Program-made: the position numbers and the translations under genes
The notes under the pieces: generated by a model
Seen by the model: the letters and a program-made list of their open reading frames with translations, nothing else
What the model was told of the DNA's origin: nothing
Database searches by the model: none
NCBI GenBank assembly: GCA_023705905.1
Contig: BPTK01000001.1
Coordinates: 8,799 to 72,798, forward strand
From: Candidatus Heimdallarchaeota archaeon
GTDB lineage: Archaea > Asgardarchaeota > Heimdallarchaeia > Heimdallarchaeales > Heimdallarchaeaceae
DNA length: 64,000 bases
Direction: 5' to 3'
Shown: piece after piece, positions 5,789-27,771 of the stretch
Position numbering within the stretch: position 1 is the stretch's first letter
Layout: every line of letters begins with the position of its first letter

Positions 5789-7318
5789 CTAATCAGTTGT
5801 GTCTCCATCAAACTCAGTAGCAAGTTGTTCATAAAACTGATCTTCTTCAGAAGCTGGATCAACGCCTTCTTCTGTTAGTATTCCTGTCCTGTCATCTTCC
5901 ACCATGTATTCCATATCTTCTAGAATTGGTTCCAATTCCTCTTCTACTCTTGCAGAGAATTTTTCTTGAATAAAACCAATTAGGGAGGTAAATAGTAGGA
6001 TAAAGATTACCAGCGGAATTAAGAGAAGAACTACTCCTTCTGGCTCGAACATCTCAATTGAATTATAAATTGAAGGAGGATATCTTAAGAAGTATAACAA
6101 GATGTCTGGGTTTAAGATAGCATATAGTCCCCCAAGCATTATACCTACTCTGAATATAATCGATATCCCAACATGCATGAGAGTTTTGAAAGGAGTTATG
6201 GCTATAGACGCACCTACTAGTTTATCATCAACTTTTGGATCACTATGAACTAAACCATCATGATATCTTTGTAACCTGGCAGTTAACTTGTCTCGTTGTC
6301 CACCAGGGCGAGCGAAAAGAGAATCTGAAGCTTTTTCCATAAAATAAGTTAGGCCAGCTAAACCAAATTTTCTTCTGATTGAACTACTAGTACCCGTAAT
6401 TGAGCTACCAGATTTCCCATCTCCACTTTCGGATGTTTCTTCTACATCTTCAGCTTCGTCCCTTATTATAGGAGCTGTTTTAGAACCAGTAATTCCTAAG
6501 CGGAAATCTTTCAATCTATCCAAAGCTCTTAGAACTCTTTGTTGCCTACTTTGAGCAGGATTAAGTATCTTCGTCATATAGGATATCTGTAAAGCTATTT
6601 CGAGAAACAGATATGAGGCAAGTGCAATTAGTACTACTTCGTTTGAGATAAGCTCTCCAAAGTTACGTGTGGGGGAAAATGAGAACCCTGATTTGAAGAG
6701 TAACTTAACGCTACCGTAGTAAACTACTAATTGTATGAAAATAAATGCAGCTGTCGCTGAGCGCATATCTGCTCTTAGTAGAAATGCTGTAACAGCTACG
6801 GAAAATAGTATTATAAATAACACTAAAATTGAAGCTCTGTTTGCAGCTTTTAAGGGACCTAAATTGGCGAAATAGTAAACAAATGGAGAGAATAATGCAT
6901 CTATAGTTGATTCACCTACTCCATATAGTTCTGATGCAGTCATCTCACCTGGAGGTGAAACATTGTTGAATAAATCCACTGTGATAAATGCTCTCGCTCC
7001 TAAAAGAATAGCATTTGCATCATCTGCTGAGATAAGGAGAAATATCATCAAAGGAAGAGAGAAAATTACAAGAGCTATATTCTCGAAGAAAATGAATATC
7101 AGTGTTAAGCTATCCAATAGATGTCCATCAGGGAATTTTTCTGCATTTGCAAAGTCGATGAGATCTGCAAATTGAAGTACAACCCAAACAATAACCCCTA
7201 TAGCAACTACTCTTCCAATTACATTTGTAATTGTGGTTTGAATTTTTGCACTGCGGATTCTACGTTGTACTCCTCTGATTCCAAGATCGATAAATTGTGT
7301 GTCTCCTAACGATTCCAT
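5789..7318 (-). CDS. polytopic membrane protein with an acidic C-terminal tail; last gene of MoxR cluster A
   Basis: The ORF runs 5789..7381. The likely start is the internal MESLGDTQF near 7318, which limits overlap with the DUF58 gene. It has many hydrophobic helices and a D/E-rich C-terminus (EEELEPILEDMEYMVEDD...DGDTTD). It has the same position and architecture as 19843..20691 in cluster B. Confidence 0.4.
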   Translation of the reverse strand: MESLGDTQFIDLGIRGVQRRIRSAKIQTTITNVIGRVVAIGVIVWVVLQFADLIDFANAEKFPDGHLLDSLTLIFIFFENIALVIFSLPLMIFLLISADDANAILLGARAFITVDLFNNVSPPGEMTASELYGVGESTIDALFSPFVYYFANLGPLKAANRASILVLFIILFSVAVTAFLLRADMRSATAAFIFIQLVVYYGSVKLLFKSGFSFSPTRNFGELISNEVVLIALASYLFLEIALQISYMTKILNPAQSRQQRVLRALDRLKDFRLGITGSKTAPIIRDEAEDVEETSESGDGKSGSSITGTSSSIRRKFGLAGLTYFMEKASDSLFARPGGQRDKLTARLQRYHDGLVHSDPKVDDKLVGASIAITPFKTLMHVGISIIFRVGIMLGGLYAILNPDILLYFLRYPPSIYNSIEMFEPEGVVLLLIPLVIFILLFTSLIGFIQEKFSARVEEELEPILEDMEYMVEDDRTGILTEEGVDPASEEDQFYEQLATEFDGDTTD

Positions 7319-7325
7319 TTTCTTA

Positions 7326-8780
7326 TCATCCTCGACGTTGCATGCGGTTAAACTGTGACATGACTGTAGGTAAGAAGTCATCTGGACCTACTGAGATAGA
7401 TACCGCATCATATCTTCTTAGAAGTTTGAATAGATTCTGTCGTTCACCTAATTGTTTCTCAACCATAGCATGTCCTACCATCTGTTCTACTGGTGAAAGT
7501 TGATGTGAAACAATTTCAAACCATGGTCCAAAGGGAGAGATAACGGTTATGTTATGCTTCCTTGCTCTGGCTCTTCTGATAGCTTTGATAATTCTTTCAG
7601 GATGAGATTCTAAATCTGAAATTACTACAATATAAGCTGCACGTTTCACTCTTTGTAAGAGGTAATCAATTGCAACTTCCAAATCCGATTCTCCTTGAGG
7701 TTTAGCATGAGCAAGAGACTCTAAAAACTGAAATAGACGAGATCTCACTGAAGTTATATCAACCCAATTCCTTATTTTATCATCATAGATACATAGTCCT
7801 ACAAGATCCTTTTTCTCAAACGCAAGATGTATAAGGAGAACAGCACTTCGGATAGCATACTCTAGTTTAGTGTTTCTTGGTAGTCCTGCTCCCATGCTTA
7901 CAGAAGAATCTACTAACACAATCACACGTATATTCTCTTCAGATTCATATTCTCTAACCATCATCTTTCCTGAACGCGAGAAAGCTTTCCAATCTATGAA
8001 TTTGAAAGGATCACCTGTCTGATATTGTCGTATACCCCAGAAATCTGACCCCATACCTTTTATTTTCGTTCTATGGAAACCAAACAGAACACCTAGTTGT
8101 CGTTTCTTTCCAACCATTTCCAATTTTTTAATATCTTCGTAACTTGGATAAACTAAGATTTCTGTCTTTGTAATTATCTCTCCTTCTGTCGCATAGAATC
8201 CCATTCGATCCCTTATAATCACTTTAGTAGGACCTATCTCAAAAACACCTCTTATTGGTATTCTAACGACATATCCATAAGTTATTGTCTGTCTTGGATT
8301 CAGTTGCGTAACGATAAAGTTTTCACCTAGAATTAGATCGAAAACTTCAGGAATTGCGTCATAGATCTCAACAGTTGGCAACTGATTTACAGATTTATTC
8401 CTAGCAGTTACCTCTATGTATACATAATCTCCTGCGAAAGCTTTGGGTTTTGAAACCTTTCTAGTTATTTCTATAGATTTGGGGTTAGAGCCTAGTCTGT
8501 AAAACGGTAATCCTAACAGAACTGAAAAGATTAACATTACTCCACCGATTATGAAAAACCAGATAAGAGTACCTTGAGTATCAAGATAAAAATGTAAGAA
8601 ATCCATTATACCTATACCTTGATTTCCAGCAAGATCTCCAGTTGTTGTGGAGTTAACTTGGGGGCTTACACCAAATGAATCTAACATGGTGTTTAGAGAT
8701 AAGTAACCCATTAGTGCAAAGCCTACGCTAATCATTATGATTCCACCAAAGACTAGATAACCACCTCGGCGTGTGAACAA
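7326..8780 (-). CDS. DUF58 family protein (vWA-like, MoxR-associated)
   Basis: Two N-terminal TM helices. The DUF58 signature GMGSDFWGIRQYQTGDPFKFIDWKAFSRSGKMMVREYESEE is followed by a MIDAS-like VLVDSSVSMG. It lies directly downstream of the MoxR ATPase with a 28-nt gap. Confidence 0.8.
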   Translation of the reverse strand: MFTRRGGYLVFGGIIMISVGFALMGYLSLNTMLDSFGVSPQVNSTTTGDLAGNQGIGIMDFLHFYLDTQGTLIWFFIIGGVMLIFSVLLGLPFYRLGSNPKSIEITRKVSKPKAFAGDYVYIEVTARNKSVNQLPTVEIYDAIPEVFDLILGENFIVTQLNPRQTITYGYVVRIPIRGVFEIGPTKVIIRDRMGFYATEGEIITKTEILVYPSYEDIKKLEMVGKKRQLGVLFGFHRTKIKGMGSDFWGIRQYQTGDPFKFIDWKAFSRSGKMMVREYESEENIRVIVLVDSSVSMGAGLPRNTKLEYAIRSAVLLIHLAFEKKDLVGLCIYDDKIRNWVDITSVRSRLFQFLESLAHAKPQGESDLEVAIDYLLQRVKRAAYIVVISDLESHPERIIKAIRRARARKHNITVISPFGPWFEIVSHQLSPVEQMVGHAMVEKQLGERQNLFKLLRRYDAVSISVGPDDFLPTVMSQFNRMQRRG

Positions 8781-8808: not shown

Positions 8809-9822
8809 TTATACTGGAACGGGTAAGTTTCGAAGTATTTCACCTACAACGATGGTTCCAGTTGTTCCTTCTAATTCAGCTTCTGGTTTCATTTGTAATC
8901 TATGGGCACTTGCGACTCTGGCAACTCTTTTTACATCATCGGGGATAACGTAATCTCTACCTCTCATTGCTGCAACAGATTTAGATGCATTTAGAAGAGC
9001 TATACTGCATCTTGGACTTCCACCCAATGTTAATCTGGGATCGGTTCGAGTTGCTACAACCATATTCTTGATGTATTCAATAATATCGTCATGAACAAAT
9101 ATCTGGGTCTGAACGCACTCTTTCATTTTAGTAATGGTCATAGGAGTTGTTACTCTACGAACTGATTGTTTGATCTGTTTATGTTTCAGAAGTATGATTT
9201 CCTTCTCTTCTTCAGGTGTAGGTAAACCAACTAATAGCTTAAACATAAATCGATCAACTTGAGCTTCGGGTAACGGATAAGTTCCTTCCTGTTCAATCGG
9301 GTTTTGTGTCGCAATTACCAAAAATGGGTCATCCAGTTTAAAGGTAGTTCCTTCTACTGTAACCTGTTTTTCTGCCATAGCTTCTAACAATGCTGCTTGA
9401 GTTTTTGGCGGGCTTCTGTTGATTTCATCAGCCAACAATATATTTGTGAATATTGGCCCTTTTCTCATTTTGAATGTTCCAGCCTTTGGATCATAAATGG
9501 TAGTTCCTACCACATCTGATGGTAATAAATCTGGAGTAAATTGAACTCTTTTGAATTCACATCCAAGAGTTAGAGAAAAACTATTAGCCATTACAGTTTT
9601 TGCAATTCCTGGAACACCTTCTAGTAGACAGTGACCTCCACCAAGTAGAGCGATAAACATATCTTCTAGAACATCAACCTTTCCGATAATTACTCGTCTT
9701 AACTCGCTGTATATTTCTTCCCAGACTCTCTTTACGTCCTTGGGAGTAACAACTGCTTCTGTTGCTGTCTTTGCTTTCGCTTTTCCTTTTGTTTCACTTG
9801 TTTCTTCACTCATTTTTTTCAC
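8809..9822 (-). CDS. MoxR-like AAA+ ATPase
   Basis: 337 aa with Walker A LLEGVPGIAKT and Walker B ILLADEINRSPPKTQ, plus the typical MoxR C-terminal region (GGSPRCSIALLNASKSVAAMRGRDYVIPDDV). Confidence 0.85.
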   Translation of the reverse strand: MKKMSEETSETKGKAKAKTATEAVVTPKDVKRVWEEIYSELRRVIIGKVDVLEDMFIALLGGGHCLLEGVPGIAKTVMANSFSLTLGCEFKRVQFTPDLLPSDVVGTTIYDPKAGTFKMRKGPIFTNILLADEINRSPPKTQAALLEAMAEKQVTVEGTTFKLDDPFLVIATQNPIEQEGTYPLPEAQVDRFMFKLLVGLPTPEEEKEIILLKHKQIKQSVRRVTTPMTITKMKECVQTQIFVHDDIIEYIKNMVVATRTDPRLTLGGSPRCSIALLNASKSVAAMRGRDYVIPDDVKRVARVASAHRLQMKPEAELEGTTGTIVVGEILRNLPVPV

Positions 9823-9851: not shown

Positions 9852-11651
9852 TTACAATCTATCAATTAATCCTTTAATAAATGTCATATATCTCATGAAC
9901 AGAAATTCTTGGATGAACCTTGGTCTATTAAGATACTCGTTTATTTTTACTAATTCTCCATAAAGATCTTTAAATCTTAATGAAGGATATTTTATACTGA
10001 AGTATTCAGCTATTTCTTCTGGAGAAGACATTGATTGTTTTGACACCTTTCTTAAGCCTCTGACCATCGATCTATATAAAAGACCAACTGCTTCACTATA
10101 GGCACCTGAGTCAACGATTCGCCTTATTTCTCTCTCAAACCGTGATTTTCCTTGTTCTCCTCTATACTTAGTCCACAGCACTGGAGATAAACGTGTTTTC
10201 TTTGGTATTAATGGATAAGCAATTACAGCAAGTAGGACGGGTATAAAGGGTGAATAAAGTGGAAACATTGACATTTCAGTAATAAATTTCATTATTGCCA
10301 TGGAATATACAGAAGCGCTGTAAAACTTCTGATGAGCGTGTCCTTCATCGAAGATGATAGGGATAGCACTTCCCGCAGTTACATTCATATCACTTCCTAA
10401 ATAGCTGAACAAGTTCCTACTAAATATCAAATTGTCATTTTCTTCTGGTTTGTCAATCCATTTATTAATGAAAATATCAGGATCGCCAATCATTACTATT
10501 TTACCTAATCCTATTGGTAAGGTCATAATTGGAGCAAACATAACATTTCCCCACTCATCTGCATCAGGAAATGCTTCACCGTCTTTCGCTGATTGGAAAT
10601 CAGATTCCATCCATGCAGATCTCGAAGTATAGAAAGGAAGGAAGGGGAGAAACATATCTTCTATTTCAACACCGAATATTTCCAAGGAAATGGCTTGCAA
10701 CGGCATCCAATCAGTTTTCTCTTCTCCAGTTATGGTGTCATTGTGTCTGATAGCCAAACTCAAAACTGTTCCAAACTCCATTTGTAAACCTTTGGATATA
10801 CCGTCAGTTAGAGGATTTGATGTTTCCATGTTCCTTAGAAGAGGTTGAGCAGGATTTGTTGTATATGTTTCAGCATCCATGAGAACAGAGCCATTAAATG
10901 CAAAGCCTCTCAACATCCCCAGCATACTGAAGATCAGTGTTTCAGGACCAGCTGTCTGATTTTCTCCTCCAAATCCAAATAAATCTAATAAGGAGGGGAT
11001 TGTTCCATTACTCATATCTGCTATCTCATCCCAACTATTAAGTAGTGAGAAGAATGGTTCAAAAATTTGCGCTCCCGTGCCATAATCGTCTGCTATAACC
11101 AAACTACCTCCTTTTGCTAAGAATGTTACTAAAGATATCGTATCTATAGTTCCGTAATTTGCTGCTGGACCGATGATTGCTACTATTCCAGGATCAGTGA
11201 TGCGATTTAGTACTGCAAGTGAGGACATACCATTTGTGATATTATAGCCTTCATTTTCCAAGTTAGCTCTTAAGCTAGTTAATCCATCCCAGCCTTCATT
11301 ATAAATACTAAACTTTGTTCCATATCCAGCTAAGCCAACCAAGCCTAATAAAATGGGTACCACAATAATGATAAAAAGTATAAACAATGCAATGGAATAT
11401 TTTGAGAAATTTCTAACGAATTCTGACATTAAATATAGAATTAGAATTACAATAGTTACCACTATCATCATAGCTCCAATATCTTGAGAAAATATATAAG
11501 CTACAATTGTTCCAACAATAGCCAAGATTTCGACGACTATGAATAAAGCTAATTTTTTCGGAGAGATTTGTATATTTATTCTCCTCTTAGCCTCTGGTCT
11601 TGATCTTCTTTCTCTTGACTTGTTTCTTTGTTTGTTGTCTGGCTGGCTCAA
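9852..11651 (-). CDS. membrane-anchored extracytoplasmic protein, DUF4350-like (by architecture and operon position)
   Basis: 599 aa with N-terminal TM helices, a large extracytoplasmic domain (GSLVIADDYG ... KIVMIGDPDIF) and a C-terminal TM followed by a cytoplasmic tail. The gene order matches bacterial DUF4350-DUF58-MoxR operons. It is a paralog of 23032..24315. Confidence 0.35.
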   Translation of the reverse strand: MSQPDNKQRNKSRERRSRPEAKRRINIQISPKKLALFIVVEILAIVGTIVAYIFSQDIGAMMIVVTIVILILYLMSEFVRNFSKYSIALFILFIIIVVPILLGLVGLAGYGTKFSIYNEGWDGLTSLRANLENEGYNITNGMSSLAVLNRITDPGIVAIIGPAANYGTIDTISLVTFLAKGGSLVIADDYGTGAQIFEPFFSLLNSWDEIADMSNGTIPSLLDLFGFGGENQTAGPETLIFSMLGMLRGFAFNGSVLMDAETYTTNPAQPLLRNMETSNPLTDGISKGLQMEFGTVLSLAIRHNDTITGEEKTDWMPLQAISLEIFGVEIEDMFLPFLPFYTSRSAWMESDFQSAKDGEAFPDADEWGNVMFAPIMTLPIGLGKIVMIGDPDIFINKWIDKPEENDNLIFSRNLFSYLGSDMNVTAGSAIPIIFDEGHAHQKFYSASVYSMAIMKFITEMSMFPLYSPFIPVLLAVIAYPLIPKKTRLSPVLWTKYRGEQGKSRFEREIRRIVDSGAYSEAVGLLYRSMVRGLRKVSKQSMSSPEEIAEYFSIKYPSLRFKDLYGELVKINEYLNRPRFIQEFLFMRYMTFIKGLIDRL

Positions 11652-12039
11652 CTAATTCTACACCTTGTTCTCTAATTCCACGGAAACATATATCTAATCT
11701 CTGGATGGCTTCTTGGTAGTCATCATATGTTATTTCAGTGTCTGTATATCTAGCAATTTCAAAGGATGTAAGATACTCGTCCATAACTTCTGTGGAGATG
11801 TTAGCTCTATTAGCAACTGAAAAACCAAATTCTCTTCCAGTTTGATATATTGCACGGGACATACTAAGTAACCCGTGAGCAATGTTGTTTAAACCTCCAA
11901 AGGAAGCAATAACTGCACCTTTGTAATCTTGTCTTTGCTCAAATATCCTTACATCTGCCATGACGGATGTAAACATCTGGTTTAATGATTTTACTTGTTT
12001 TCTTTTCTTGAAGAACCCAAACATACCTCTATGACTCAA
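11587..12039 (-). CDS. small soluble protein carrying a DUF4129-like ARY motif
   Basis: 150 aa. SFEIARYTDTEITYDDYQEAIQRL matches the same motif as the C-termini of 12029..15709 and 24312..25109. It overlaps both neighbours (65 nt and 11 nt), so its true start is uncertain. Confidence 0.3.
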   Translation of the reverse strand: MSHRGMFGFFKKRKQVKSLNQMFTSVMADVRIFEQRQDYKGAVIASFGGLNNIAHGLLSMSRAIYQTGREFGFSVANRANISTEVMDEYLTSFEIARYTDTEITYDDYQEAIQRLDICFRGIREQGVELVEPARQQTKKQVKRKKIKTRG

Positions 12040-19842: not shown

Positions 19843-20691
19843 TTAATCGGTATTTTTAACTGAAATATTCTCAATGGTGTCTTCAGTTACTTCCACATCG
19901 GAAATTTCTTCTTTTTGTTGATTATCTTGTGCATCTGCGTCTACAATCTTAGGTAGAATCGCATTTGTTCTAATTAGGATAACGGAATAAATTATAGCTA
20001 CTAATATCAAAGAAGGACGGATTACGTATTCGGCTATGGAATTTTCAGGTATGAGGTAATAAACCATTAAAGCATAAAGGGCAGCAAGGACAGCAAAAAC
20101 AATCAATATTAAAGATGGCCACAGCATTCTCCTCAATAATACAATCCATTTTTGTAAAGATTCAATTTCTTCAGGAGAGGCATACTCAAAATCTGTTTTT
20201 ATTAAATTGTCTGTATATTGTTGCACTTGTTCTTTTGTATACTTGCTCTTTGTCTTTACAAATGCATATTCTTGTTCGAAGTATTCCATATAATAAAAAG
20301 TTGACAGAAAACGTAAGCCTATACATAATCCGGCTAAGGTTTGATATATTATAATATCAACTCTCCCTAAGGTAGCAGGGAAAAACATTGAGTTCAGGTC
20401 AGCTAGAAGAAGAGACAGTATCGTACCGAATACAAAGAAGAGACCATAAGCAACTTCAGAGGATAATTTTATTTGAGTTCCTTTGATAAGGTCTGTCATC
20501 AATATTACTATTCCAAGAACCAACCATATTGCGAAAATATAGATATTCAAACTAAAAGCTGATTGGATGACAATTAAACTAATAGCCAAAGCACCAAAAA
20601 GATGATGAGTGCTTGCGATGAAAGTAGAGCCTGGAGACGTCAGAGAAGTTTGTTTCCAATCTTCCTCAAACACTTTGTCTTTTATTCTCAT
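19843..20691 (-). CDS. polytopic membrane protein with an acidic C-terminal tail; last gene of MoxR cluster B
   Basis: 282 aa with 6-7 TM helices and a D/E/Q-rich tail (DADAQDNQQKEEISDVEVTEDTIEN). It overlaps the DUF58 gene by 4 nt. Confidence 0.4.
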   Translation of the reverse strand: MRIKDKVFEEDWKQTSLTSPGSTFIASTHHLFGALAISLIVIQSAFSLNIYIFAIWLVLGIVILMTDLIKGTQIKLSSEVAYGLFFVFGTILSLLLADLNSMFFPATLGRVDIIIYQTLAGLCIGLRFLSTFYYMEYFEQEYAFVKTKSKYTKEQVQQYTDNLIKTDFEYASPEEIESLQKWIVLLRRMLWPSLILIVFAVLAALYALMVYYLIPENSIAEYVIRPSLILVAIIYSVILIRTNAILPKIVDADAQDNQQKEEISDVEVTEDTIENISVKNTD

Positions 20692-22070
20692 GACGATCTC
20701 CCCACTGCTTCTTGTACCAATCTCTGAGTTGGTGAATATTTTTTCATCAATCGGTACAAAGATAAGATGATATTATCGTCATATCCGAATATATCTACAT
20801 AATCTCCACGAATTGAATATAAAATTTGACGCAATTCTATTTCCCGTGTTCTATACTCATCTCTCACAATACTTGGAAAAACATCTTGTAATATCTCCCC
20901 ATAATTCATGTCTTCTGTCCTATTCAACATCCAATCATGAGAAGATAGGATATTAAAATGCATAGTAGCAAAATTAACAAAAACCACTCTACTCCCCATG
21001 GTTTGAAGTAGATGTATACCTTGTAGTTTTTTTATCAAATCACCTTCTAAATCGGAAAATATTATTGCAATAGAATGGATCACATTATTGTTTTTGGCAA
21101 ACTTAACAGCATTAAGGAAACTACTATGAACACCAGTAGCTTCAACATCATACAGGTTGAGCATTAGTCTTAGTTCATGCTTTCCGACTTGTGGTATTAT
21201 GTATTTTTGCACATTTTTAGAATAAGCTATCACAGCTAAATCATGATTAGTACCTTTGATTAATGAACATAGTTCTACTACTGAAGATAGTGCATACTCG
21301 AACTTGGGTCCAAACATCGTACTGCTAAGATCAAGATAAATCAAGAAATGTAAATTTCTTTGGTCTTCAAATTCTCTTGTTATTAATTTATCATGTCTCG
21401 CTGTTGCATACCAGTCAATGTGCTTCAGCTGATCACCAGGTAAATAATCTCGGAGCGCAAAAAATTCATCGCCTCTTCCCTTAATTCTCTGAGCAAATTC
21501 ATGAACCATTTTCAATAATAGTTCTTTCTTTGTCTTCCATGGTATGTTAATTCGTGGCCTTTGAGGTAATATCTTGATTTTTTGTGTATCCTTCAGTATT
21601 CGCTTATGCCTGAAAAGATACTGAAAGGATCCAATGGAGATTTCAATTGGACCAATTTCACCATTCCCTCTTCTATTAGCAAGCAATAACCAAACAATTT
21701 TCGTTTTCTTTTGCGGATATAATTTGATTAATACCGTCTCTGATTTGTCTATACTCTTAAAATGAAATGAGAATCGGAGTCTGATTTTTGTAAGAATTGT
21801 TCTTCTAGATGGATTTGTTAATTCAACTGCTACAGCCAACAAACCCCTACTTCTCATATAATCTTTTGAGCAACTCATTTTTGTATTGAAAGAATAAGTA
21901 TGAGAGAATAAGAAAGAGATAAATGAGGATGTAATAACTATCCAGAATAAGACACCGGGAACTATAAGAAGTAAATTATCTATTGCTAAGCCTATAATTA
22001 CAAATAGACTCCCAAATAGAATGAACGCCTTACCATTCTTTGTAAGTTCAAAGTGTCTTTCTTCTTCCAT
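20688..22070 (-). CDS. DUF58 family protein (vWA-like), paralog of 7326..8780
   Basis: N-terminal TM helices. DUF58 signature GRGDEFFALRDYLPGDQLKHIDWYATARHDKLITREFEDQ and MIDAS-like IYLDLSSTMF. Confidence 0.75.
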   Translation of the reverse strand: MEEERHFELTKNGKAFILFGSLFVIIGLAIDNLLLIVPGVLFWIVITSSFISFLFSHTYSFNTKMSCSKDYMRSRGLLAVAVELTNPSRRTILTKIRLRFSFHFKSIDKSETVLIKLYPQKKTKIVWLLLANRRGNGEIGPIEISIGSFQYLFRHKRILKDTQKIKILPQRPRINIPWKTKKELLLKMVHEFAQRIKGRGDEFFALRDYLPGDQLKHIDWYATARHDKLITREFEDQRNLHFLIYLDLSSTMFGPKFEYALSSVVELCSLIKGTNHDLAVIAYSKNVQKYIIPQVGKHELRLMLNLYDVEATGVHSSFLNAVKFAKNNNVIHSIAIIFSDLEGDLIKKLQGIHLLQTMGSRVVFVNFATMHFNILSSHDWMLNRTEDMNYGEILQDVFPSIVRDEYRTREIELRQILYSIRGDYVDIFGYDDNIILSLYRLMKKYSPTQRLVQEAVGRSS

Positions 22071-22090: not shown

Positions 22091-23035
22091 TTATATTACA
22101 ACTTCTACATCAGAAAGGATATTTTCAATTATCTCAGGAATATGGATTTGTTCTATTTCTGCTTCTGGAGAGAGTATTAGTCTGTGATTCATAACAGGAA
22201 AGAATATCGATTTGATATCGTCAGGTTCTACAAAATCTCTTCCTCTAATTGCAGCTATAGACCGACTCAGAGTAAGTAAAGCTATTGACCCTCTTGGACT
22301 TGCTCCAAGCGCTAAGGAAGGAATCGAACGTGTTGCAATTACTAGTTTAGCAATATACTCAAGAATCTGATTGCTTACAGTAACGTTTTTCTCAATTTCT
22401 GTTATTAATTTGATAATGGTTTTCTGGTCAGTAACTTTCTCAACATCTGCAAACATCTTTTCTCTCTTCTTAACAAGCATATTAACTTCTCCATGAAGAG
22501 AGGGAGGATAAACAGGAATCTTAACTAAAAATCTATCAATCTGAGCTTCTGGAAGAGGATAGACTCCTGTAGACTCTATTGGGTTTTGGGTAGCGATAAC
22601 CATAAATGGCTCAGGAAGTTTGAACGTTTGATTACCCGAAGAAACTTGCTTCTCTTGCATAGCTTCTAACAAAGCAGATTGGGTTTTGGGTGGAGCCCTG
22701 TTTATTTCGTCTGTTAGTAGTATACTTGTGAAAACGGGTCCTTCAATGAATCTAAAAGAACTTGTTTCTCTTTCGTATATGTTACCCCCTGTGATATCTG
22801 CAGGCATTAAATCGCTTGTAAACTGGATTCTTTTGAAACCCATTTCGATAGCTTCTGCTAAAGTACTAGCCATCAATGTTTTTGCTATTCCGGGAACACC
22901 TTCTAGAAGAACGTGTCCTTCACTTAGAAGAGAAGCAAACATTAGCTCGATAACATTTTCATTACCCACTATTCGTTTTTTCATTTGTACCATTATTTTG
23001 TCAAAAATATCTTTTGCCTCTTGCACTTTTGTCAT
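22091..23035 (-). CDS. MoxR-like AAA+ ATPase, paralog of 8809..9822
   Basis: 314 aa with Walker A LLEGVPGIAKT, Walker B ILLTDEINRAPPKTQ and C-terminal GASPRGSIALLTLSRSIAAIRGRDFVEPDD. Confidence 0.85.
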   Translation of the reverse strand: MTKVQEAKDIFDKIMVQMKKRIVGNENVIELMFASLLSEGHVLLEGVPGIAKTLMASTLAEAIEMGFKRIQFTSDLMPADITGGNIYERETSSFRFIEGPVFTSILLTDEINRAPPKTQSALLEAMQEKQVSSGNQTFKLPEPFMVIATQNPIESTGVYPLPEAQIDRFLVKIPVYPPSLHGEVNMLVKKREKMFADVEKVTDQKTIIKLITEIEKNVTVSNQILEYIAKLVIATRSIPSLALGASPRGSIALLTLSRSIAAIRGRDFVEPDDIKSIFFPVMNHRLILSPEAEIEQIHIPEIIENILSDVEVVI

Positions 23036-24315
23036 TTAAATCGTCCTCTTTTTTGTATCTCTTCAAGCATTTTGAAGAGTGAAAGGAAAGTTTTTGAATC
23101 TAATTTTCTTGTGAACGCAATTTCAAATAATTCTTTTTCCTCATCTGTGAATTTCTCCAAATGAATATAACTTGCCTTCTTCGTAAGATAATAATGATAA
23201 GCTTTCTGAGGATAAAGCTCATACTGGAAATACAAGTTTGATAGAAACTGTTCCTCAATCGTTGGTTTTATTGGAGAACCAAAAGTATCGTAAAGTTCCC
23301 TCTCTCGCGACCAAATCCTATCCGATAAGTATTGCTTATAGGTTTCTTTAGATTTGAATCTCTCTCTAAATCTTGGTGTGACATAGTATAAAATTAAAAC
23401 AACCATAACTAGTAAGAAAATAAAAAGTTGGGTTTTTGATAATAGAACTATTGTCCCATAAGATTGGTTAATCATTCCCTCTGTTGTTGAAAAGGGCCAC
23501 CTTTTATGGCTTTCTTCAAAACATACAAGGCTTTCTTCTCCTGCAGAAAAATCCTCCATCAGCTTGAGTGCGAGATCAATGTTCCCAAAACCTTTGCTAT
23601 AAAGATCGTTAGTTAGAAAACTTGGGGAGGAAACAATAATAATTGTTCCAAGTCCTCTACTAAGAACTGTACCTACTTGTAAACTAGCTGTATTTTCAGA
23701 ATCAACATCCCAAACACCGTCTTGATCCTCATCTAAAAACGCGGTACTGTGAGTATTTATTCCAAGAAGCTCTGTCTGTATTGAACCCTCTGTAACATAA
23801 GACAGTGCTCTAGCTTCAATCATGCAAAGACTAGTGTTTGAACTTGTTGAATTTAACATTATGATTTCTGGTGTTTTATAATAATATGTTGTTTCCAATA
23901 TTGTAGAGGTTGTAAGAAAAACCCCGAAGTGTTTTGCTAGAAGATTGGTAGGTCCAGAACCTGCCAATATTACTAATAAACCACCCTGTAAAACAAAGCC
24001 GTCTATTGCTAACGTTTCTGAATCTTGATAGTTTTTTGAGCCTCCAGCAACGATAAGAGTTGATGATTCTGGAAGTTTAATAATAGAATCTGTTGACAGT
24101 ATTGTTCTTGTGGTATTATAACCGGATTCAATAAGTAAGCTGTTGAAATATGACATGCCACCAGGTTCCGTATTGCTGATAGAATATGGAGGTTGTGTGC
24201 TAGTGACATTAATACTAAGGGGGAGGATTATTATTAAAAATATAATCAGAGTTTGGATAAGCATTTGGAACAATGGTGAATATTTCTTTGAAAATAGGAC
24301 AGGAACACGTTTCAT
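23032..24315 (-). CDS. membrane-anchored extracytoplasmic protein, DUF4350-like; paralog of 9852..11651
   Basis: 427 aa with an N-terminal TM/signal, an ectodomain (STLIVAGGS ... GGLLVILAGSG), a C-terminal TM (LFIFLLVMVVLILYYV) and a cytoplasmic tail. It occupies the same position relative to MoxR as in cluster A. Confidence 0.35.
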   Translation of the reverse strand: MKRVPVLFSKKYSPLFQMLIQTLIIFLIIILPLSINVTSTQPPYSISNTEPGGMSYFNSLLIESGYNTTRTILSTDSIIKLPESSTLIVAGGSKNYQDSETLAIDGFVLQGGLLVILAGSGPTNLLAKHFGVFLTTSTILETTYYYKTPEIIMLNSTSSNTSLCMIEARALSYVTEGSIQTELLGINTHSTAFLDEDQDGVWDVDSENTASLQVGTVLSRGLGTIIIVSSPSFLTNDLYSKGFGNIDLALKLMEDFSAGEESLVCFEESHKRWPFSTTEGMINQSYGTIVLLSKTQLFIFLLVMVVLILYYVTPRFRERFKSKETYKQYLSDRIWSRERELYDTFGSPIKPTIEEQFLSNLYFQYELYPQKAYHYYLTKKASYIHLEKFTDEEKELFEIAFTRKLDSKTFLSLFKMLEEIQKRGRFK

Positions 24316-25109
24316 TGTTCATCTTCCTCGCTAATTCTATGAATAATTTCGATATTAACTTGAGCTGAACTCAAACTTTTAACTGCTTCAAGTTCTTTGA
24401 TGAAAAACAACAAATCTTTCCTTTTCATTTGTTGTTCTTTATATCTTGCAACATAGAAAGTTTGAATCATTGAATTCAAATGTGGAAGGATATTAGGTAA
24501 ATCTAGTGAGCTTGCAAATTCTTTGGGTGTAAGATAAGTTTCTCTGCTTATCCCTAGAATTTTCTTCATATTCTCATCAAGTTGATGATAACCAAAAATT
24601 ATTCCTTCTGTATATTTTTTTTCTCTCAAATATTCCCTAAGTACTTCTGAAAGTGTTTTTATTTGTGTTCTGAATTTTTCTCTTCTAGCCTGAAGTGTTC
24701 CTCCTTTAACCATGGAACTAGGCACGGGTCTACTTTCCTCAGTTCTTCTTCTAAAAAATAGAACTGCTATTAAAATTATTATAACTATTCCAACTGCAAT
24801 AGGAATAATTTGAGCAGGAATAAGTGCTTCACTTCCACCTTGGGGATTATTTGGCGGAATAGAAGGTGTATTAGTTGGATAGGGAGGAGTATAGGGATTC
24901 GTAGCATTGAATGGGTCTGTTGCCCCAGTTGGTGGAGAGGAAGTACTGGTAATCAAATCATTTTCATCACGACTATCGATACTAACATACGTTTCTTGAG
25001 TACTGTTTACTAGAATGAATGTTAGTATACAAGCAAAAATTAGAAACAATCTAATATTAATATATTTCTTGAAATTAATCTTCACTTGTATCACCTTTTT
25101 GAACTTCAT
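24312..25109 (-). CDS. single-pass membrane protein with a T/P-rich ectodomain linker and a cytoplasmic DUF4129-like domain
   Basis: 265 aa with a signal/TM, then TSTSSPPTGATDPFNATNPYTPPYPTNTPSIPPNNP, a TM segment (IIPIAVGIVIIILIAVLFF), then YLTPKEFASSL and FYVARYKEQQ motifs as in 12029..15709. Confidence 0.4.
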   Translation of the reverse strand: MKFKKVIQVKINFKKYINIRLFLIFACILTFILVNSTQETYVSIDSRDENDLITSTSSPPTGATDPFNATNPYTPPYPTNTPSIPPNNPQGGSEALIPAQIIPIAVGIVIIILIAVLFFRRRTEESRPVPSSMVKGGTLQARREKFRTQIKTLSEVLREYLREKKYTEGIIFGYHQLDENMKKILGISRETYLTPKEFASSLDLPNILPHLNSMIQTFYVARYKEQQMKRKDLLFFIKELEAVKSLSSAQVNIEIIHRISEEDEQ

Positions 25110-26085
25110 CTATTACTAGCTTACTTTGACGTAGGAAAGCGTAAATTTTGCACAATGGCCAATATCTGCTCAAACACACTTGATATTTGTGAGCCGCCGT
25201 AAGATATCCCAAATAAGCGCACCTACCATCCTCGTAATAAATACAGCTATCAGTTTTTTCTCTTCTAAGGATTAAATTAACTGTTCTATTCAAATAGACC
25301 ATGGATAAAGCACTAAATTGTCTTTCGCTTCTCTTTGGAGGTTCGTCCAAATCGAAGATTGTTTTTACAGATAACGGCATATTTGGTAGTATTAAATGGG
25401 AATAAGATACCTTTGAACCTTTCTTGGTTGTTGACATGCTAGACAGAAGTTTGCCTAAACTAATGCCCAGTGCCCCTCCAAGCCCACTTATTAGAGTAAG
25501 CGAAAATGCAAATATAAATAGGAACCCAAATGACAAACCTTGTATGAAAGAGCTATCGGCACTATCAGAGCTTAGTGAAGTAAATAGAATTATCTGGGAG
25601 AAGTAAAGAAGAATGAAGAAGAGAAGAGAAAAAACAACAGTTGGAATAATTAGATCTTGAGCTTCTTCTCTCCACATAATACCAGCAATTAGACCAGATA
25701 GGAGAAAGGGTATGAAAGCTGTAATTATGTAATTAGAGAGTAAAACAAAAGGATCTGTAAATGTGCCTTCAAATGCGAATTTGAATGGTAAAATTAAAAT
25801 GGACTGAGGAGTCCAAATCACGTTAGTTATAATGAATTGATCCTGGAGGAAATGGTAAAGGACACCAAAAATCATCGAAAAAGCATATCCAATTGCCATA
25901 TAAGTCGAGATTCTTAGAATAAGTATAGTAATGTACTCCCGTTTTCCTCTATTTTTCAAATGAGGAAAAATTAATTTAAACATTAATTCCCGGTAATTCA
26001 TCTTAAGTGGAGGAGTACCTCCTTCAACCTTTGGACCATCATCAACAGGAAGGGAAGGTCGTTGTGTAATTACCATATTATTCAC
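25075..26085 (-). CDS. polytopic membrane protein, function unknown
   Basis: 336 aa with multiple hydrophobic helices and a C-terminal Cys-rich stretch (CIYYEDGRCAYLGYLTAAHKYQVCLSRYWPLC). It is tightly packed, with a 1-nt gap to the upstream gene. Confidence 0.35.
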   Translation of the reverse strand: MNNMVITQRPSLPVDDGPKVEGGTPPLKMNYRELMFKLIFPHLKNRGKREYITILILRISTYMAIGYAFSMIFGVLYHFLQDQFIITNVIWTPQSILILPFKFAFEGTFTDPFVLLSNYIITAFIPFLLSGLIAGIMWREEAQDLIIPTVVFSLLFFILLYFSQIILFTSLSSDSADSSFIQGLSFGFLFIFAFSLTLISGLGGALGISLGKLLSSMSTTKKGSKVSYSHLILPNMPLSVKTIFDLDEPPKRSERQFSALSMVYLNRTVNLILRREKTDSCIYYEDGRCAYLGYLTAAHKYQVCLSRYWPLCKIYAFLRQSKLVIDEVQKGDTSED

Positions 26086-27771
26086 CTATAGAACTATCAA
26101 TCTTCCTCCTTTTGAAGTTTTTAATAGAAAGTAAACACTTGCAGAAGCTAATAGAAGTGTACATAATAAAACTATGATTCCATAACCTATCAGTGAGATA
26201 GTGATTATCAAAAGTACTGAAAAAATTATCATATACAAAGAGGTCACAATAATTGATATTGCTACAATTGAAAGAAGATTTATTGAACTTATAATAGATT
26301 TTACTCTGTTTCTTTTGTATCTATACGATACCACTGTTGCGAATATTGCAACTATAATGGAAAGTAAGAACAAAGCATAACCAAGGAAAGGCACAGTAAC
26401 TTCAATGGATGTAAATGTGAAAACAAAACTGATAAATATCCCAACAGCTAGAATTCGAGTAAAACCAACTGCAATTGATGCGTAAAAAGGTGGGGAAGAG
26501 GAACTCATTTTTTCGTATAATGCATCTACTTCTGTTCCACAGGACCAACAAACTCGTGCAAATTGTGGTAGTACTTGATTACAGTTTCGGCATTGGATTT
26601 TAGGGAAGGACCAACAATTCATGCAGAATTCCCCATTAAATACTGGTGTTCGACACTGTGAACATACCATCAAGTTAGTTTTCTCATCATAAAGAGGTTC
26701 TGTGTTTTTCATTTTCTCAAGATCTTCTTTTAAAGGAAATGTGTGAGAAGAAATATCTGGACATTCCTTCTCAATGTGTTGAGTAAAACATTTAGGACAA
26801 AAACTAGGAACAGAGAACATTATTACTAAAATAAAAAATCCAAATAAAGCATAGGATAAGTTTCCAAGAATTAGTGATATTGTTTCCATATTAGCGTTAA
26901 ATTCTGTGTTAAAATTCCATAAACTATGGAAAGAAATACTCAGAATTAGAAACAAGATGCCGATTATTATTCTCTTGAATTTTGAGATTTTATTGCGATA
27001 TAAGAATGCCAACCCCAAACCTGTAGCAGCTAACATGGTTGTTACGGTGTGCAAAGGATAGATGCTTCGAAGAGGGAGTAAGAAGCTAAGAGCACTTTCA
27101 GGTTCAGAGGAATATAAAAGAAATTGTTCAAACAAATCAAACCATGCACCAAAAAATCCTCCAAGCATAATAAAAATTCTGAATGAGGGCGTAAGTTTTG
27201 TGTGAATTGACCGTTTAGCGTTGAGATTTACTCTAGCATAGTTTCCAAGCAAGATGATAATGGGGAAAATCTTTGCTATTTCTTCAACTATAGGAATAAT
27301 AAACACTGAGAAAATGAAATGCAAAATTTGATATATCACAGGAAATGAGTCAGACGATGCGAAAAACCCAGAAGTAAAGGTCATCAATATGAAAAATTCC
27401 TTTTCTATAATCACAGCAAAATAGGGGGTTAAAACCCCCATCACTAAGAGAAGAGAAAAGAGTTTCTTGATTAGTTTGGTTTCAAGTTGAGTGCTTGTTA
27501 TGCCGAATAGCAAATAGATACATGTTACCCAAAGAATGAAAAATACTGTAATTGCGAGAATTACAATAATTGGAAGAAAGAGGGAATTTTCGTATCTAGT
27601 AACAAAGGTAACTAGGAAATAAGCGAGAACTGCTAAAATAGATAATAATACAACTTTAGCCAGTGTTGAGAGATTCAAGATGCGCTTGTGTATTGGTTCA
27701 ATGATTAACAATTCTTCAACTGAAGCATCTACTTTTTTTTTCTTAGCTGAAACATTAATCATTGTTCCCAA
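26086..27771 (-). CDS. polytopic membrane protein with an internal multi-CxxC zinc-ribbon insert
   Basis: 561 aa with at least 10 predicted TM helices. The central soluble loop is CPKCFTQHIEKECPD ... CSQCRTPVFNGEFCMNCWSFPKIQCRNCNQVLPQFARVCWSCGTEV, which is 5-6 CxxC pairs. Confidence 0.4.
   Translation of the reverse strand: MGTMINVSAKKKKVDASVEELLIIEPIHKRILNLSTLAKVVLLSILAVLAYFLVTFVTRYENSLFLPIIVILAITVFFILWVTCIYLLFGITSTQLETKLIKKLFSLLLVMGVLTPYFAVIIEKEFFILMTFTSGFFASSDSFPVIYQILHFIFSVFIIPIVEEIAKIFPIIILLGNYARVNLNAKRSIHTKLTPSFRIFIMLGGFFGAWFDLFEQFLLYSSEPESALSFLLPLRSIYPLHTVTTMLAATGLGLAFLYRNKISKFKRIIIGILFLILSISFHSLWNFNTEFNANMETISLILGNLSYALFGFFILVIMFSVPSFCPKCFTQHIEKECPDISSHTFPLKEDLEKMKNTEPLYDEKTNLMVCSQCRTPVFNGEFCMNCWSFPKIQCRNCNQVLPQFARVCWSCGTEVDALYEKMSSSSPPFYASIAVGFTRILAVGIFISFVFTFTSIEVTVPFLGYALFLLSIIVAIFATVVSYRYKRNRVKSIISSINLLSIVAISIIVTSLYMIIFSVLLIITISLIGYGIIVLLCTLLLASASVYFLLKTSKGGRLIVL

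Follow-up and report, generated by a model that had tools for sequence, protein, structure and literature searches.

The window, a 64,000-nucleotide stretch of a Candidatus Heimdallarchaeota contig, contains two gene clusters whose ORFs were all found at the coordinates given below, with minus-strand orientation throughout: cluster A (5789-18810; genes A1 to A7) and cluster B (19843-27771; B1 to B7). The only gene between them, as originally predicted, is thyX, coding for a flavin-dependent thymidylate synthase (19136..19840, plus strand; Pfam Thy1, 206 bits), which is transcribed towards cluster B and away from cluster A, so that it converges with the former and diverges from the latter. Direct reading of the sequence revealed an AT-rich intergenic region of 325 bp between cluster A and thyX (18811..19135), which presumably contains the promoter site or sites. 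Neighbouring genes within both clusters overlap by 4 nt, as do the end of A1 and the start of A2, or are separated by gaps of <30 nt. Given this tight spacing, and since cluster B converges on thyX whereas cluster A diverges from it across the 325 bp, the clusters are two separate transcription units. A small ORF encoding a two-TM protein of about 83–89 aa (27930..28199, minus strand; sequence read) is located 158 bp upstream of B1. Genes of 83 and 88 aa are called at this position in the related loci L001 and L004, but its membership in cluster B is uncertain.

Both clusters show the core order DUF4129, DUF4350, MoxR, DUF58, membrane protein, and Pfam searches supported the domain assignments made earlier. 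The first four of these genes are homologous between the clusters. For the terminal membrane proteins A7 and B7, no homology was detected by BLASTP or hhalign (probability 1.4%), so that the proposed "identical gene order" applies to four homologous genes and one positional analogue. The upstream polytopic membrane proteins, which had been listed for both clusters, belong to unrelated families, being transglutaminase (TGase)-like in cluster A and a PrsW protein plus a four-TM protein in cluster B.

The MoxR (MRP-type) AAA+ ATPase A5 (337 aa; 8809..9822) matches Pfam AAA_3 with 218.6 bits and AAA_lid_2 with 78.5 bits, contains the Walker B sequence LLADEINR, and matches PDB entry 2r44 (E 8e-78). 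Its counterpart B5 (314 aa; 22091..23035) scores 212 bits against AAA_3, and the Walker A sequence LLEGVPGIAKT is indeed present in both. Proteins with vWA domains are MoxR co-chaperones, and the MRP subfamily is linked to DUF58 (PMC12067865). The DUF58/vWA protein A6 (484 aa; 7326..8780; DUF58 124.4 bits, VWA_2 44.4 bits) combines an intact MIDAS (DSSVS) with a TM hairpin at its N-terminus and a type-specific insert of 5 aa. B6 (460 aa; 20688..22070; DUF58 62.9 bits) lacks the insert, has a degenerate MIDAS (DLSST), and gave no VWA match in Pfam. The DUF58 signature proposed for both copies was recovered as GRGDEFFALRDYLPGDQLKHIDWYATAR in cluster B and GMGSDFWGIRQYQTGDPFKFIDWKAFSR in cluster A, the latter with A.SR instead of the quoted A.AR. 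The DxSxS MIDAS and the 5-aa insert are common to A6 and the DUF58 proteins of three further operons resembling cluster A (L008, L009 and L010), but are absent from all B-type proteins.

Both large partner proteins ascribed to cluster A are present. A1 (1034 aa; 15706..18810) consists of an N-terminal polytopic TM block, an ectodomain of ~830 aa, and a C-terminal TM helix according to TM prediction. Its Transglut_core score of 22.6 bits is just below the cut-off of 23 bits, and the profile of this region matches the periplasmic domain of Pseudomonas aeruginosa TgpA (6g49, E 1e-5). The designation "TgpA-like" is thus appropriate for the fold but not for the active site: the Cys, His and Asp positions are occupied by I/A/L/F/V/S, Y/F, and Q, respectively, in all Heimdallarchaeaceae orthologues. 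Judged from these replacements, A1 has lost the triad and is predicted to be catalytically dead. TgpA itself is essential in P. aeruginosa, and its gene is co-transcribed as PA2875-PA2874-tgpA (PMC3507681). A2 (1226 aa; 12029..15709) is a bitopic protein with TM helices at residues 9–27 (signal/TM) and 1076–1094, enclosing a sequon-rich ectodomain of ~1050 aa; the whole protein has 18 N-x-S/T sequons. Its DUF4129 domain (26.4 bits, residues 1154–1209) is predicted to be on the cytoplasmic side. The genes listed originally for cluster A were all found, but A3 (150 aa; 11587..12039), coding for a soluble DUF4129-like protein (weak Pfam match, 16.2 bits), had been overlooked. A3 is a paralogue of the cytoplasmic tail of A2 (BLASTP, E 1e-7). 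Its AF2 model is a five-helix bundle (pLDDT 79.5). It is 81–98% identical in most of 24 related species, as against about 40% for A1 and A2, and in the loci that reach it no other gene of cluster A apart from the ATPase gene is as well conserved. A4 (599 aa; 9852..11651) is a DUF4350 (arCOG01314, GldG-like) ectodomain protein (42.4 bits) with predicted TM segments at both ends and a cytoplasmic tail of 120 aa; it shares 24–28% identity over >500 aa with its DUF4350 counterparts in L009 and L010. The polytopic membrane protein A7 (530 aa; 5789..7381) had no match in the Pfam scan. Since most orthologues begin about 22 aa later, its true start is likely Met22, at 7318. Homologues of A7 (23–30% identity) are encoded directly after DUF58 in L008, L009 and L010. 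The family comprises just 74 representative clusters among 1.84e9 proteins, and no fold match was found for its AF2 model (pLDDT 64).

In cluster B, the first gene product, B1 (561 aa; 26086..27771, with a likely ATG start at 27762), is more than the "zinc-ribbon membrane protein" it had been called. It is a PrsW-family intramembrane metalloprotease (PrsW-protease, 36.2 bits; cut-off 23.5 bits) fused to a cytoplasmic double zinc ribbon (DZR, 19 bits) and extra C-terminal TM helices. Its EExxK, PLH and HxxWN motifs and all zinc-ribbon cysteines are invariant in 27 species, including the Hodarchaeota-type operons. The four-TM protein B2 (336 aa; 25075..26085) shows only a weak match to DUF5518 and contains Cys in its C-terminal region; orthologues occur in all Heimdallarchaeaceae loci reaching that far. 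B3 (265 aa; 24312..25109) is bitopic; it has a short ecto-linker rich in Pro and Thr and, on the cytoplasmic side, a DUF4129-like domain, identified by a weak Pfam match (15.6 bits) and by an hhalign probability of 97% towards both the A2 tail and A3. BLASTP and hhalign together indicate DUF4129 homology among these three, and the ARY motif noted before recurs in all of them (at residue 1191 of A2 and residue 221 of B3), including the previously unlisted A3. B4 (427 aa; 23032..24315) is a DUF4350 ectodomain protein (46.1 bits) with an additional match to ABC_transp_aux (GldG-like, 25.3 bits). The membrane protein B7 (282 aa; 19843..20691) had no match in the Pfam scan, and its orthologues were detected only within Heimdallarchaeaceae. 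The acidic tails attributed to the terminal membrane proteins were confirmed, the two having 15 and 11 D/E in the last 40 residues.

The relationships of the two clusters were analyzed by all-against-all BLASTP with the A-type operon loci L008, L009 and L010 and the B-type loci L004 and L006, the latter a stand-alone operon of Hodarchaeales. The names given by the sources to L008 ("Methanobacteriota") and P0057/L009 ("Zixibacteria") may result from misbinning and were not relied on. Every component of cluster A was closest to L008, L009 and L010, its cluster B counterpart being the most distant protein or giving no match, and every component of cluster B was closest to L004 and L006. A5 is 49% identical to B5, as compared to 55–66% towards its equivalents in A-type operons elsewhere, and at least 120 MoxRs in the database resemble A5 more closely than B5 does; B5 and the MoxR of L006 are 55% identical. 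A6 and B6 share 25% identity over 185 aa, as compared to 38–50% over the full length between A6 and A-type DUF58 proteins. An unrooted neighbour-joining (NJ) tree of MoxR proteins (100 bootstraps) comprises three clans. It groups B5 with the stand-alone operons in a B clade with 100% bootstrap support and contains an A-type clan supported by 92%.

The arrangement of cluster B, thyX and cluster A is kept in all loci from 24 Heimdallarchaeaceae species, two complete genomes among them, as far as the contigs reach, with thyX at the same position in the loci that extend to it. In Hodarchaeota-like genomes, by comparison, the B-type genes group with operons that stand alone. The B-type operon is complete in L006 and L007, and PrsW, DUF4129 and DUF4350 were matched in most of L035–L047; neither thyX nor an A cluster was present within 10 kb downstream of these operons. 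Adjacency of A and B around thyX, for which a comparison across genomes had been proposed, is a conserved trait of the family Heimdallarchaeaceae only. Outside the archaea, Granulicella aggregans (Acidobacteria) has DUF4129-DUF4350-MoxR-DUF58 in the same order as in the window, and a Chloroflexota MAG has DUF4350-MoxR followed by an ORF at the DUF58 match. The order common to A and B is therefore the ancestral one of this operon family.

Clusters A and B are therefore very probably anciently diverged subtypes of one widespread, envelope-associated MoxR operon family, the core of which is a DUF4129 protein, a DUF4350 (GldG-like) protein, MoxR, and a DUF58/vWA protein. The two types had already split when the Heimdallarchaeaceae parted from the Hodarchaeota-type lineages. 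A tandem duplication of very old date, in an ancestor of the Heimdallarchaeia or earlier, with the adjacency kept in Heimdallarchaeaceae and lost by rearrangement in Hodarchaeota-type lineages, would account for the occurrence of both types in Heimdallarchaeia and for four homologous, collinear core genes. Such a single archaeal event is also compatible with the unrooted three-clan NJ tree, on which it is indistinguishable from separate acquisitions. We nevertheless consider it unlikely, because the mean A–B MoxR identity of 47% is barely above the 43–45% towards bacterial MoxRs (Acidobacteria, Chloroflexi), adjacency occurs in no lineage outside one family, a housekeeping gene separates the clusters, and the accessory genes belong to unrelated families. 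The original prediction read the clusters as "tandem paralogous", that is, as products of a local duplication within the Heimdallarchaeaceae lineage followed by quick divergence, in keeping with their adjacency, common strand and core order, and identical Walker A segment. This origin is highly improbable and was rejected, since all four core genes have closer relatives in same-type operons of other lineages than in the neighbouring cluster. Moreover, Hodarchaeota-type operons that stand alone fall into the B clade, A-type and B-type proteins are set apart across lineages by their MIDAS and indel, the clusters resemble each other at the DNA level only along 415 nt within the AAA core (66.5%), and bacteria show the same gene order.

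The two subtypes differ in their partner proteins, which makes specialisation of the modules plausible. Type A adds the dead TgpA-like TGase-fold protein, the 1226-aa DUF4129-tailed surface protein, the soluble DUF4129 protein, and the rare A7; type B adds the PrsW-type metalloprotease with zinc ribbons, the four-TM protein, and the unrelated B7. By analogy, we tentatively propose, at a likelihood somewhat short of even, that in both a cytoplasmic AAA+/vWA module acts on membrane-anchored surface proteins. Both the MoxR hexamer and the DUF58 vWA domain would be located at the cytoplasmic face, where DUF58 would be held by the TM hairpin at its N-terminus, which has positive-inside flanks. Likely clients or docking sites would be the helical DUF4129 modules in the cytoplasm and the cytoplasmic tails of the bitopic proteins, whose large sequon-rich ectodomains would face outward. 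Through ATP-driven remodelling, the module could then govern how the surface proteins are assembled or inserted, or which conformational state they adopt. In type B this would be linked to PrsW and its regulated intramembrane proteolysis, in type A to a non-catalytic TGase-fold scaffold. The topologies derive from a simple hydropathy scan and positive-inside flanks; sequon densities of 1.3–2.0 per 100 residues in the predicted ectodomains, as compared to 0.2–0.6 in cytoplasmic proteins, were observed. As hhalign revealed no likeness to DUF4129 in the cytoplasmic tails of A4 and B4, the DUF4350 proteins, one shared docking module is not established, and the degenerate MIDAS of B6 weakens the case for an adaptor in cluster B that depends on metal. 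Taken together, the evolutionary and the mechanistic explanation are fairly probable.

A role as metallochaperones, by which a soluble enzyme would be activated or receive its metal cofactor, as known for CoxD/E, NorQ/D or CbbQ/O, would correspond to what is generally known as the best-documented biochemical function of MoxR-vWA pairs (summarized in PMC12067865) and to the intact MIDAS of A6. It is very unlikely here, as both operons lack a candidate target enzyme, all other gene products are membrane or surface proteins, and DUF58 itself is membrane-anchored. MoxR-vWA modules are also the cores of predicted biological-conflict systems, as far as the account of Kaur et al. 2020 in PMC12067865 goes, and secondary bpMoxR matches and fast-evolving ectodomain proteins are in line with anti-phage or other defence; this reading is scarcely credible, however, given AAA_3 matches stronger than those to bpMoxR, the lack of meaningful matches to PADLOC models in the 10 of 14 cluster proteins scanned (B5 alone gave two, at about E 0.004–0.009), the lack of nuclease, protease-effector, beta-propeller or other ternary-system effector domains, and a position and content that are stable over 24 species beside housekeeping genes.

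The proposed action on membrane-anchored surface proteins takes its client and adaptor roles from RavA-ViaA, CbbQ-CbbO and similar MoxR-vWA pairs: as in these, the vWA protein would serve as an adaptor and recruit the ATPase to its clients. The prediction by Makarova et al. of a secreted vWA protein conflicts with the cytoplasmic location suggested by our hydropathy scan. Operons of DUF4350 (arCOG01314), MoxR and vWA genes have been predicted to encode a secretion or membrane-remodelling complex (PMC5898192, section 3.2), and the mechanism put forward here agrees with that prediction.

Listing of the open reading frames and Pfam scans agreed with the gene map of the original prediction and bore out most of its domain assignments; all cluster genes (14/14) are located on the minus strand. 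Cluster A comprises A1 (15706–18810), coding for a transglutaminase (TGase)-core-like protein with a Pfam score of 22.6 bits against a cut-off of 23, A2 (12029–15709; 1226 aa, DUF4129 at the C-terminus), A3 (11587–12039; 150 aa, weak DUF4129 match), which lies between A2 and the DUF4350 gene A4 (9852–11651), the MoxR gene A5 (8809–9822; AAA_3 218.6 bits, AAA_lid_2 78.5 bits), A6 (7326–8780; DUF58 124.4 bits, and VWA_2), and A7 (5789–7381), which encodes a membrane protein without Pfam match. Cluster B consists of B1 (26086–27771), coding for a PrsW protease with a double zinc ribbon (DZR), B2 (25075–26085; four-TM protein), B3 (24312–25109; weak DUF4129 match), the DUF4350 gene B4 (23032–24315), the MoxR gene B5 (22091–23035; AAA_3 212.1 bits, AAA_lid_2 77 bits), B6 (20688–22070; DUF58, 62.9 bits), and B7 (19843–20691), again for a membrane protein without Pfam match. 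Both DUF58 scores exceed the cut-off of 23.4 bits (PF01882). Within the clusters, neighboring genes overlap by a few bases or are separated by <30 nt. The thyX gene (19136–19840, plus strand) is located between the clusters; cluster B converges on its 3' end, while cluster A diverges from thyX over a 325-bp AT-rich spacer. Because of the tight intracluster spacing and these orientations, A and B are two transcription units. Rfam and tRNA scans across the window were empty.

Both MoxR proteins retain the Walker A (GVPGIAKT) and Walker B (DEINR) motifs, and their top database matches are proteins of 93–100% identity under Heimdallarchaeaceae names, which places the window in this Asgard family. 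A match to PDB entry 2r44 was obtained for MoxR with E 8e-78. Judged by their AAA_3 and AAA_lid_2 domains and by the DUF58 gene immediately downstream (after 28 nt for A5–A6 and 20 nt for B5–B6), A5 and B5 are members of the MRP subfamily of MoxR.

The two clusters had been described as adjacent, duplicated and diverged modules of identical gene order. The four homologous genes (DUF4129, DUF4350, MoxR, DUF58) are indeed collinear, but the gene sets are not identical. The MoxR proteins share 49% identity, the DUF58 proteins 25% over a partial alignment of only 185 aa, the DUF4350 proteins 27% over 73 aa (E 9e-6), and the DUF4129 modules 21% over 96 aa (hhalign probability 97%); of the DNA sequence, just the AAA core aligned (415 nt, 66.5%). 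The motifs quoted for the paralogs were found in both clusters, except that in cluster A the DUF58 motif has A.SR at its end instead of A.AR. The upstream membrane proteins are unrelated, TGase-like in A versus PrsW and a four-TM protein in B, with no homology between A1 and B1 or B2, and A7 and B7 showed no similarity in BLASTP (hhalign probability 1.4%). The expectation for tandem duplicates that all positional pairs are homologous thus fails at A7/B7 and at A1 versus B1/B2.

When the operons surrounding distant matches were collected and their components compared all-against-all, A and B proved not to be each other's closest relatives, homologs from other lineages being closer. At least 120 database proteins are 53–93% identical to MoxR A, all above the 49% of MoxR B. 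With three operons resembling cluster A (A type; L008–L010), MoxR A shares 55–66% identity, as compared to 49% with cluster B; A6 shares 38–50% over its full length, as compared to 25% over part of it; A4 shares 24–28% over >500 aa, as compared to 27% over 73 aa; and A7 shares 23–30%, with no match in cluster B. The proteins of cluster B are nearer to those of a Hodarchaeales operon (L006/L007) than to those of cluster A; this operon, coding for DZR, PrsW, two small proteins, DUF4350, MoxR, DUF58 and a membrane protein, stands alone, with unrelated genes on both sides. The paralogs are hence no closer to each other than to homologs elsewhere, a pattern which the original prediction had itself named as refuting duplication. 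The names of two sources call for caution: L008 (GCA_003696825.1, "Methanobacteriota"), which also codes for several Arf/Ras/Roc small GTPases, and P0057/L009 ("Zixibacteria") carry A-type MoxR operons under non-Asgard names, which may reflect misbinning or old classification.

The DUF58 proteins agree with this division into A type and B type. A-type proteins show a canonical DxSxS metal ion-dependent adhesion site (MIDAS) motif, DSSVS in A6 and likewise intact in L008–L010, followed by a 5-residue insert. All B-type proteins have a degenerate motif without the insert: the window protein has DLSST, most relatives have DLG(S/G)T, and the Hodarchaeota-type proteins have DxSxT. In a neighbor-joining tree of 87 MoxR proteins (100 bootstraps, unrooted), window B grouped with the stand-alone B-type operons (100%) and window A with L008–L010 (92%). 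The split of A plus B from the bacteria in this tree is uninformative, since three clans make it true by construction. The mean identity between A and B MoxRs is 47%, barely exceeding the 43–45% that either shares with MoxRs from Acidobacteria, Chloroflexota and Dormibacterota.

A survey with a B-type DUF58 profile of one genome per GTDB species, followed by tblastn mapping, recovered 24 Heimdallarchaeaceae species, among them Ca. Heimdallarchaeum endolithica and H. aukensis with complete genomes. Wherever the contig reaches, their loci show B1–B7, thyX on the opposite strand, and then A1–A4. Thirteen further loci, from Hodarchaeota, "Hermodarchaeota", "Promethearchaeota" and two other Heimdallarchaeota chromosomes, contain a B-type MoxR-DUF58 pair, and most also PrsW, DUF4129 and DUF4350; in none of these 13 do the 10 kb downstream contain thyX or an A cluster. 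The B type stands alone in these loci, and only the adjacency of A and B is specific to the Heimdallarchaeaceae. In a close relative (L013, JABCTC010000013.1), the thyX match between the clusters falls into two pieces about 1.1 kb apart (12222–14006), which suggests an insertion or disruption. Among bacteria, the cultured acidobacterium Granulicella aggregans (L057) contains DUF4129-DUF4350-MoxR-DUF58 in the same order and orientation, preceded by genes for membrane proteins. A Chloroflexota MAG shows DUF4350-MoxR followed by an ORF at the DUF58 match, and a 341-aa protein without Pfam match at the DUF4129 position.

Since homologs from other lineages are closer and bacteria carry the same order, the common gene order is the ancestral architecture of the operon family and no trace of a local duplication. 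The A/B split predates the divergence of Heimdallarchaeaceae and Hodarchaeota-type lineages; the unrooted trees are compatible both with a single, very old duplication in archaea and with separate acquisitions of A and B. An ancient duplication in which the two were adjacent from the start is unlikely, and nothing positive supports it. A recent local duplication giving rise to both clusters is contradicted by the closer homologs elsewhere, the tree, the MIDAS and insert characters, and the gene order in bacteria. The locus is not the case of gene duplication and specialization that it had seemed, but comprises two subtypes of a known operon family lacking characterization.

Several neighboring genes are worth recording. 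A small two-TM ORF (27930–28199, minus strand; about 83–89 aa) is located 158 bp upstream of the PrsW gene B1; genes of the same size occupy the same position in the homologous loci L001 (4807–5058) and L004 (4736–5002), and it is a possible eighth gene of cluster B. These two loci also keep the genes upstream of cluster B that code for a small GTPase, a CBS protein, an FrhB-like protein, an F420 ligase and a TPR/SNAP-like protein. The GTPase (32383–32991, minus strand) is of the Ras/Roc/Arf type, a eukaryote-like Asgard signature protein, and its gene overlaps a 283-aa ORF without Pfam match (32975–33826, minus strand). The gene of a CDC48/p97-type double AAA+ ATPase (33952–36138, minus strand) lies upstream of cluster B at a distance of about 6 kb; though unrelated to the MoxR modules, it is the third AAA+ gene in 30 kb. 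The strand opposite cluster A encodes, immediately downstream of it, a 774-aa EF-2/EF-G-like GTPase (3376–5700, plus strand). Three consecutive large ORFs of 835, 882 and 2268 aa (45904–59424, plus strand), without Pfam match at E ≤1e-4, lie partly in a low-GC stretch at about 44–54 kb (27–31%, versus 34–37% elsewhere in the window); this region may be a foreign or fast-evolving island of giant proteins.

A single-sequence PDB search with A1 returned nothing. A profile of its TGase region matched the periplasmic domain of Pseudomonas aeruginosa TgpA (6g49, E 1e-5) as well as fish and human TGases. TM helices of A1 span residues 52–164, ahead of the TGase-fold domain, and the protein has the TgpA-type arrangement of an extracytoplasmic TGase-core fold following an N-terminal polytopic TM block. 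Compared with 6g49 and TG2, however, the catalytic Cys is replaced by variable residues (I/A/L/F/V/S), His by Y/F, and Asp by Q, and the Cys-His-Asp triad is absent from 22 of 22 Heimdallarchaeaceae A1 orthologs, which marks A1 of this family as a TgpA-like pseudoenzyme. A1 has neither a DUF4129 match nor an ARY motif; DUF4129 occurs on A2 and A3 instead. The TGase homolog of L010 (Hodarchaeota MAG JBHLKK010000003.1, 5174–8725) has Ser-His-Asp and carries DUF4129 at its own C-terminus. It looks intermediate between bacterial TgpA, which has both Cys-His-Asp and DUF4129, and the A1 of Heimdallarchaeaceae, which has neither the triad nor DUF4129.

A3, omitted from the original listing, is a real gene. 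Its product is 81–98% identical in most of 24 related species, in which its neighbors A1 and A2 reach about 40%; apart from MoxR, few cluster A genes are as well conserved. The A3 protein has no TM segment and is paralogous to the cytoplasmic tail of A2 (BLASTP E 1e-7; the hhalign value of 100% was left unused, being inflated through cross-recruitment of sequences). Its AF2 model is a five-helix bundle (pLDDT 79.5), for which the PDB offered only generic four-helix bundles (HEPN, FAT, designed proteins; E >0.2, TM ≤0.5). Comparison of the cytoplasmic tails of the DUF4350 proteins with DUF4129 by hhalign was negative (probability ≤1.4%).

B1 scored 36.2 bits with the PrsW-protease model (PF13367, cut-off 23.5), and its EExxK, PLH and HxxWN motifs and every zinc-ribbon Cys are invariant in 27 species. 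B1 is accordingly annotated as a putative intramembrane metalloprotease of the PrsW family; its EExxK and His motifs we take to be catalytic, as in Bacillus subtilis PrsW, a site-1 protease that cleaves the anti-sigma factor RsiW.

The A7 family is rare (74 representative clusters among 1.84 billion proteins) and has no Pfam model; an AF2 model of A7 (19-sequence alignment, pLDDT 64) gave no PDB match below E 0.2 with Foldseek, and no mutual relatedness of A7, B7 and B2 was found by hhalign (probability ≤1.4%). A single-sequence PDB search with A6 returned only noise. The predicted acidic tails are present in the Heimdallarchaeaceae members of both terminal families, but the tails are basic or neutral in L008, L009, L010 and L006. 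An acidic tail acting as MIDAS ligand and as defining feature of the operons was rejected as a general model, since distant members lack it.

A hydropathy scan indicated an N-terminal TM hairpin with basic flanks in both DUF58 proteins, which would place their Ig-like and vWA parts in the cytoplasm together with MoxR, a protein lacking a signal sequence. In the bitopic proteins A2 and B3, DUF4129 follows the last TM helix. A1, A2, A4 and B4 have large stretches between TM helices and a density of N-glycosylation sequons 2–3 times that of cytoplasmic proteins. In characterized MoxR-vWA pairs, the vWA protein acts as co-chaperone or adaptor (PMC12067865). Considering topology, sequon density and this precedent, our preferred reading is that the clusters would encode an ATP-driven module on the cytoplasmic side for the assembly, insertion or switching of surface proteins anchored in the membrane. 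Candidate docking sites are the DUF4129 bundles, and the module would be coupled to regulated intramembrane proteolysis in type B and to a non-catalytic TGase-fold scaffold in type A.

A defense function of the MoxR-vWA type is unlikely: PADLOC searches with 10 of the 14 cluster proteins yielded only two marginal matches (both B5, about E 0.004–0.009), Pfam indicated no effector domains, and the locus is stable among housekeeping genes in 24 species. Neither the PADLOC nor the NCBIfam scans produced a meaningful match. For a metallochaperone serving a soluble enzyme, the operons contain no candidate target.

The cytoplasm-side module may be extended to a bolder proposal, to which we give little credence: that A and B of Heimdallarchaeaceae form one co-regulated surface-building machine for inside-out control of the Asgard cell surface, with DUF4129 as docking module. 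The operons would have stayed side by side through the whole family history; MoxR and DUF58 would assemble or switch, from inside, the non-catalytic TGase-fold receptor or scaffold and the giant glycoprotein of type A, acting via soluble and tethered DUF4129 helical bundles, and regulated intramembrane proteolysis by the PrsW of type B would serve to release or activate components. If true, such a machine could control, e.g., Asgard protrusions or cell-cell contact, and DUF4129 would supply the long-sought module through which clients dock to MRP-type MoxR ATPases.

Few prokaryotic gene modules that lack an established mechanism are as widespread as the MRP-type MoxR/DUF58 operons. The locus separates constant parts (DUF4129, DUF4350, MoxR and DUF58 in fixed order) from swappable ones (either a TGase fold or PrsW, and terminal membrane proteins that are unrelated between A and B), which narrows the hypotheses on clients and adaptors and makes DUF4129 a testable docking module. 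It also indicates that a TGase fold can be retained without its catalytic triad. The pseudo-transglutaminase, the conserved soluble DUF4129 gene, the association of PrsW with the B type and the family-wide B-thyX-A synteny are the findings worth keeping. For the biology of Asgard archaea, the locus marks envelope machinery stably throughout the family; on eukaryogenesis it says nothing specific.

Literature searches on MoxR with Asgard archaea and on recent DUF58 work gave nothing specific, most "DUF58" matches referring to DUF581/583/584. B1 resembles B. subtilis PrsW in its EExxK and His motifs, but is extended by a fused double zinc ribbon and additional TM helices and encoded within a MoxR operon. 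The clusters contain no sigma/anti-sigma pair, and archaea are not known to possess sigma factors. The operons of Acidobacteria and Chloroflexota (e.g., L057) keep the core order, in the Chloroflexota locus that of DUF4350, MoxR and the DUF58 match, but their products are annotated as hypothetical proteins, their MoxRs are 43–45% identical, and the accessory genes are not the same.

Cluster A resembles PA2875-PA2874-tgpA of P. aeruginosa, in which MoxR and DUF58 genes are co-transcribed with that of a polytopic protein with extracytoplasmic TGase fold (PMC3507681), and the bifidobacterial PFNA cluster pkb2-fn3-MoxR-duf58-tgm, which combines the MoxR-DUF58-TGase-fold set with a large surface protein (PMC8430577). 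DUF4129 is the C-terminal module of TgpA-type proteins. However, TgpA is an active, essential enzyme with Cys-His-Asp (PMC3507681), whereas A1 has I/Y/Q-type replacements at all three positions; the TGase gene is last in the bacterial operons but first in cluster A, and the bacterial operons lack a DUF4350 gene, the window clusters a kinase. The Bat/aerotolerance and mycobacterial moxR1 operons share an MRP MoxR gene followed by DUF58 and an envelope context (PMC12067865, PMC5700661), but the window clusters contain DUF4129 and DUF4350 proteins instead of BatA/BatB-type TM-vWA or TPR proteins.

The archaeal arCOG01314 (DUF4350)-MoxR-vWA neighborhood was predicted to encode a secretion or membrane-remodeling complex (Makarova, Galperin & Koonin 2015, PMC5898192, section 3.2). 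As in the window clusters, its DUF4350 protein has an N-terminal signal or TM segment and, behind a large ectodomain, a TM helix at the C-terminus, and its operon contains an adjoining COG0714 MoxR gene, a gene for an Ig-like plus vWA protein (DUF58), and further genes for membrane or surface proteins. Its partners arCOG02884, arCOG03442 and pfam07760 (Ig-like, S-layer-type) gave no Pfam match at E ≤0.1 in any cluster protein. The window clusters differ in having DUF4129 proteins together with a dead TGase fold (A) or PrsW and zinc ribbons (B), and in their vWA protein, which would be cytoplasmic, whereas that of the arCOG01314 complex was assumed to be secreted (PMC5898192). A module acting from the cytoplasmic side nevertheless fits the secretion or membrane-remodeling role predicted for that complex.
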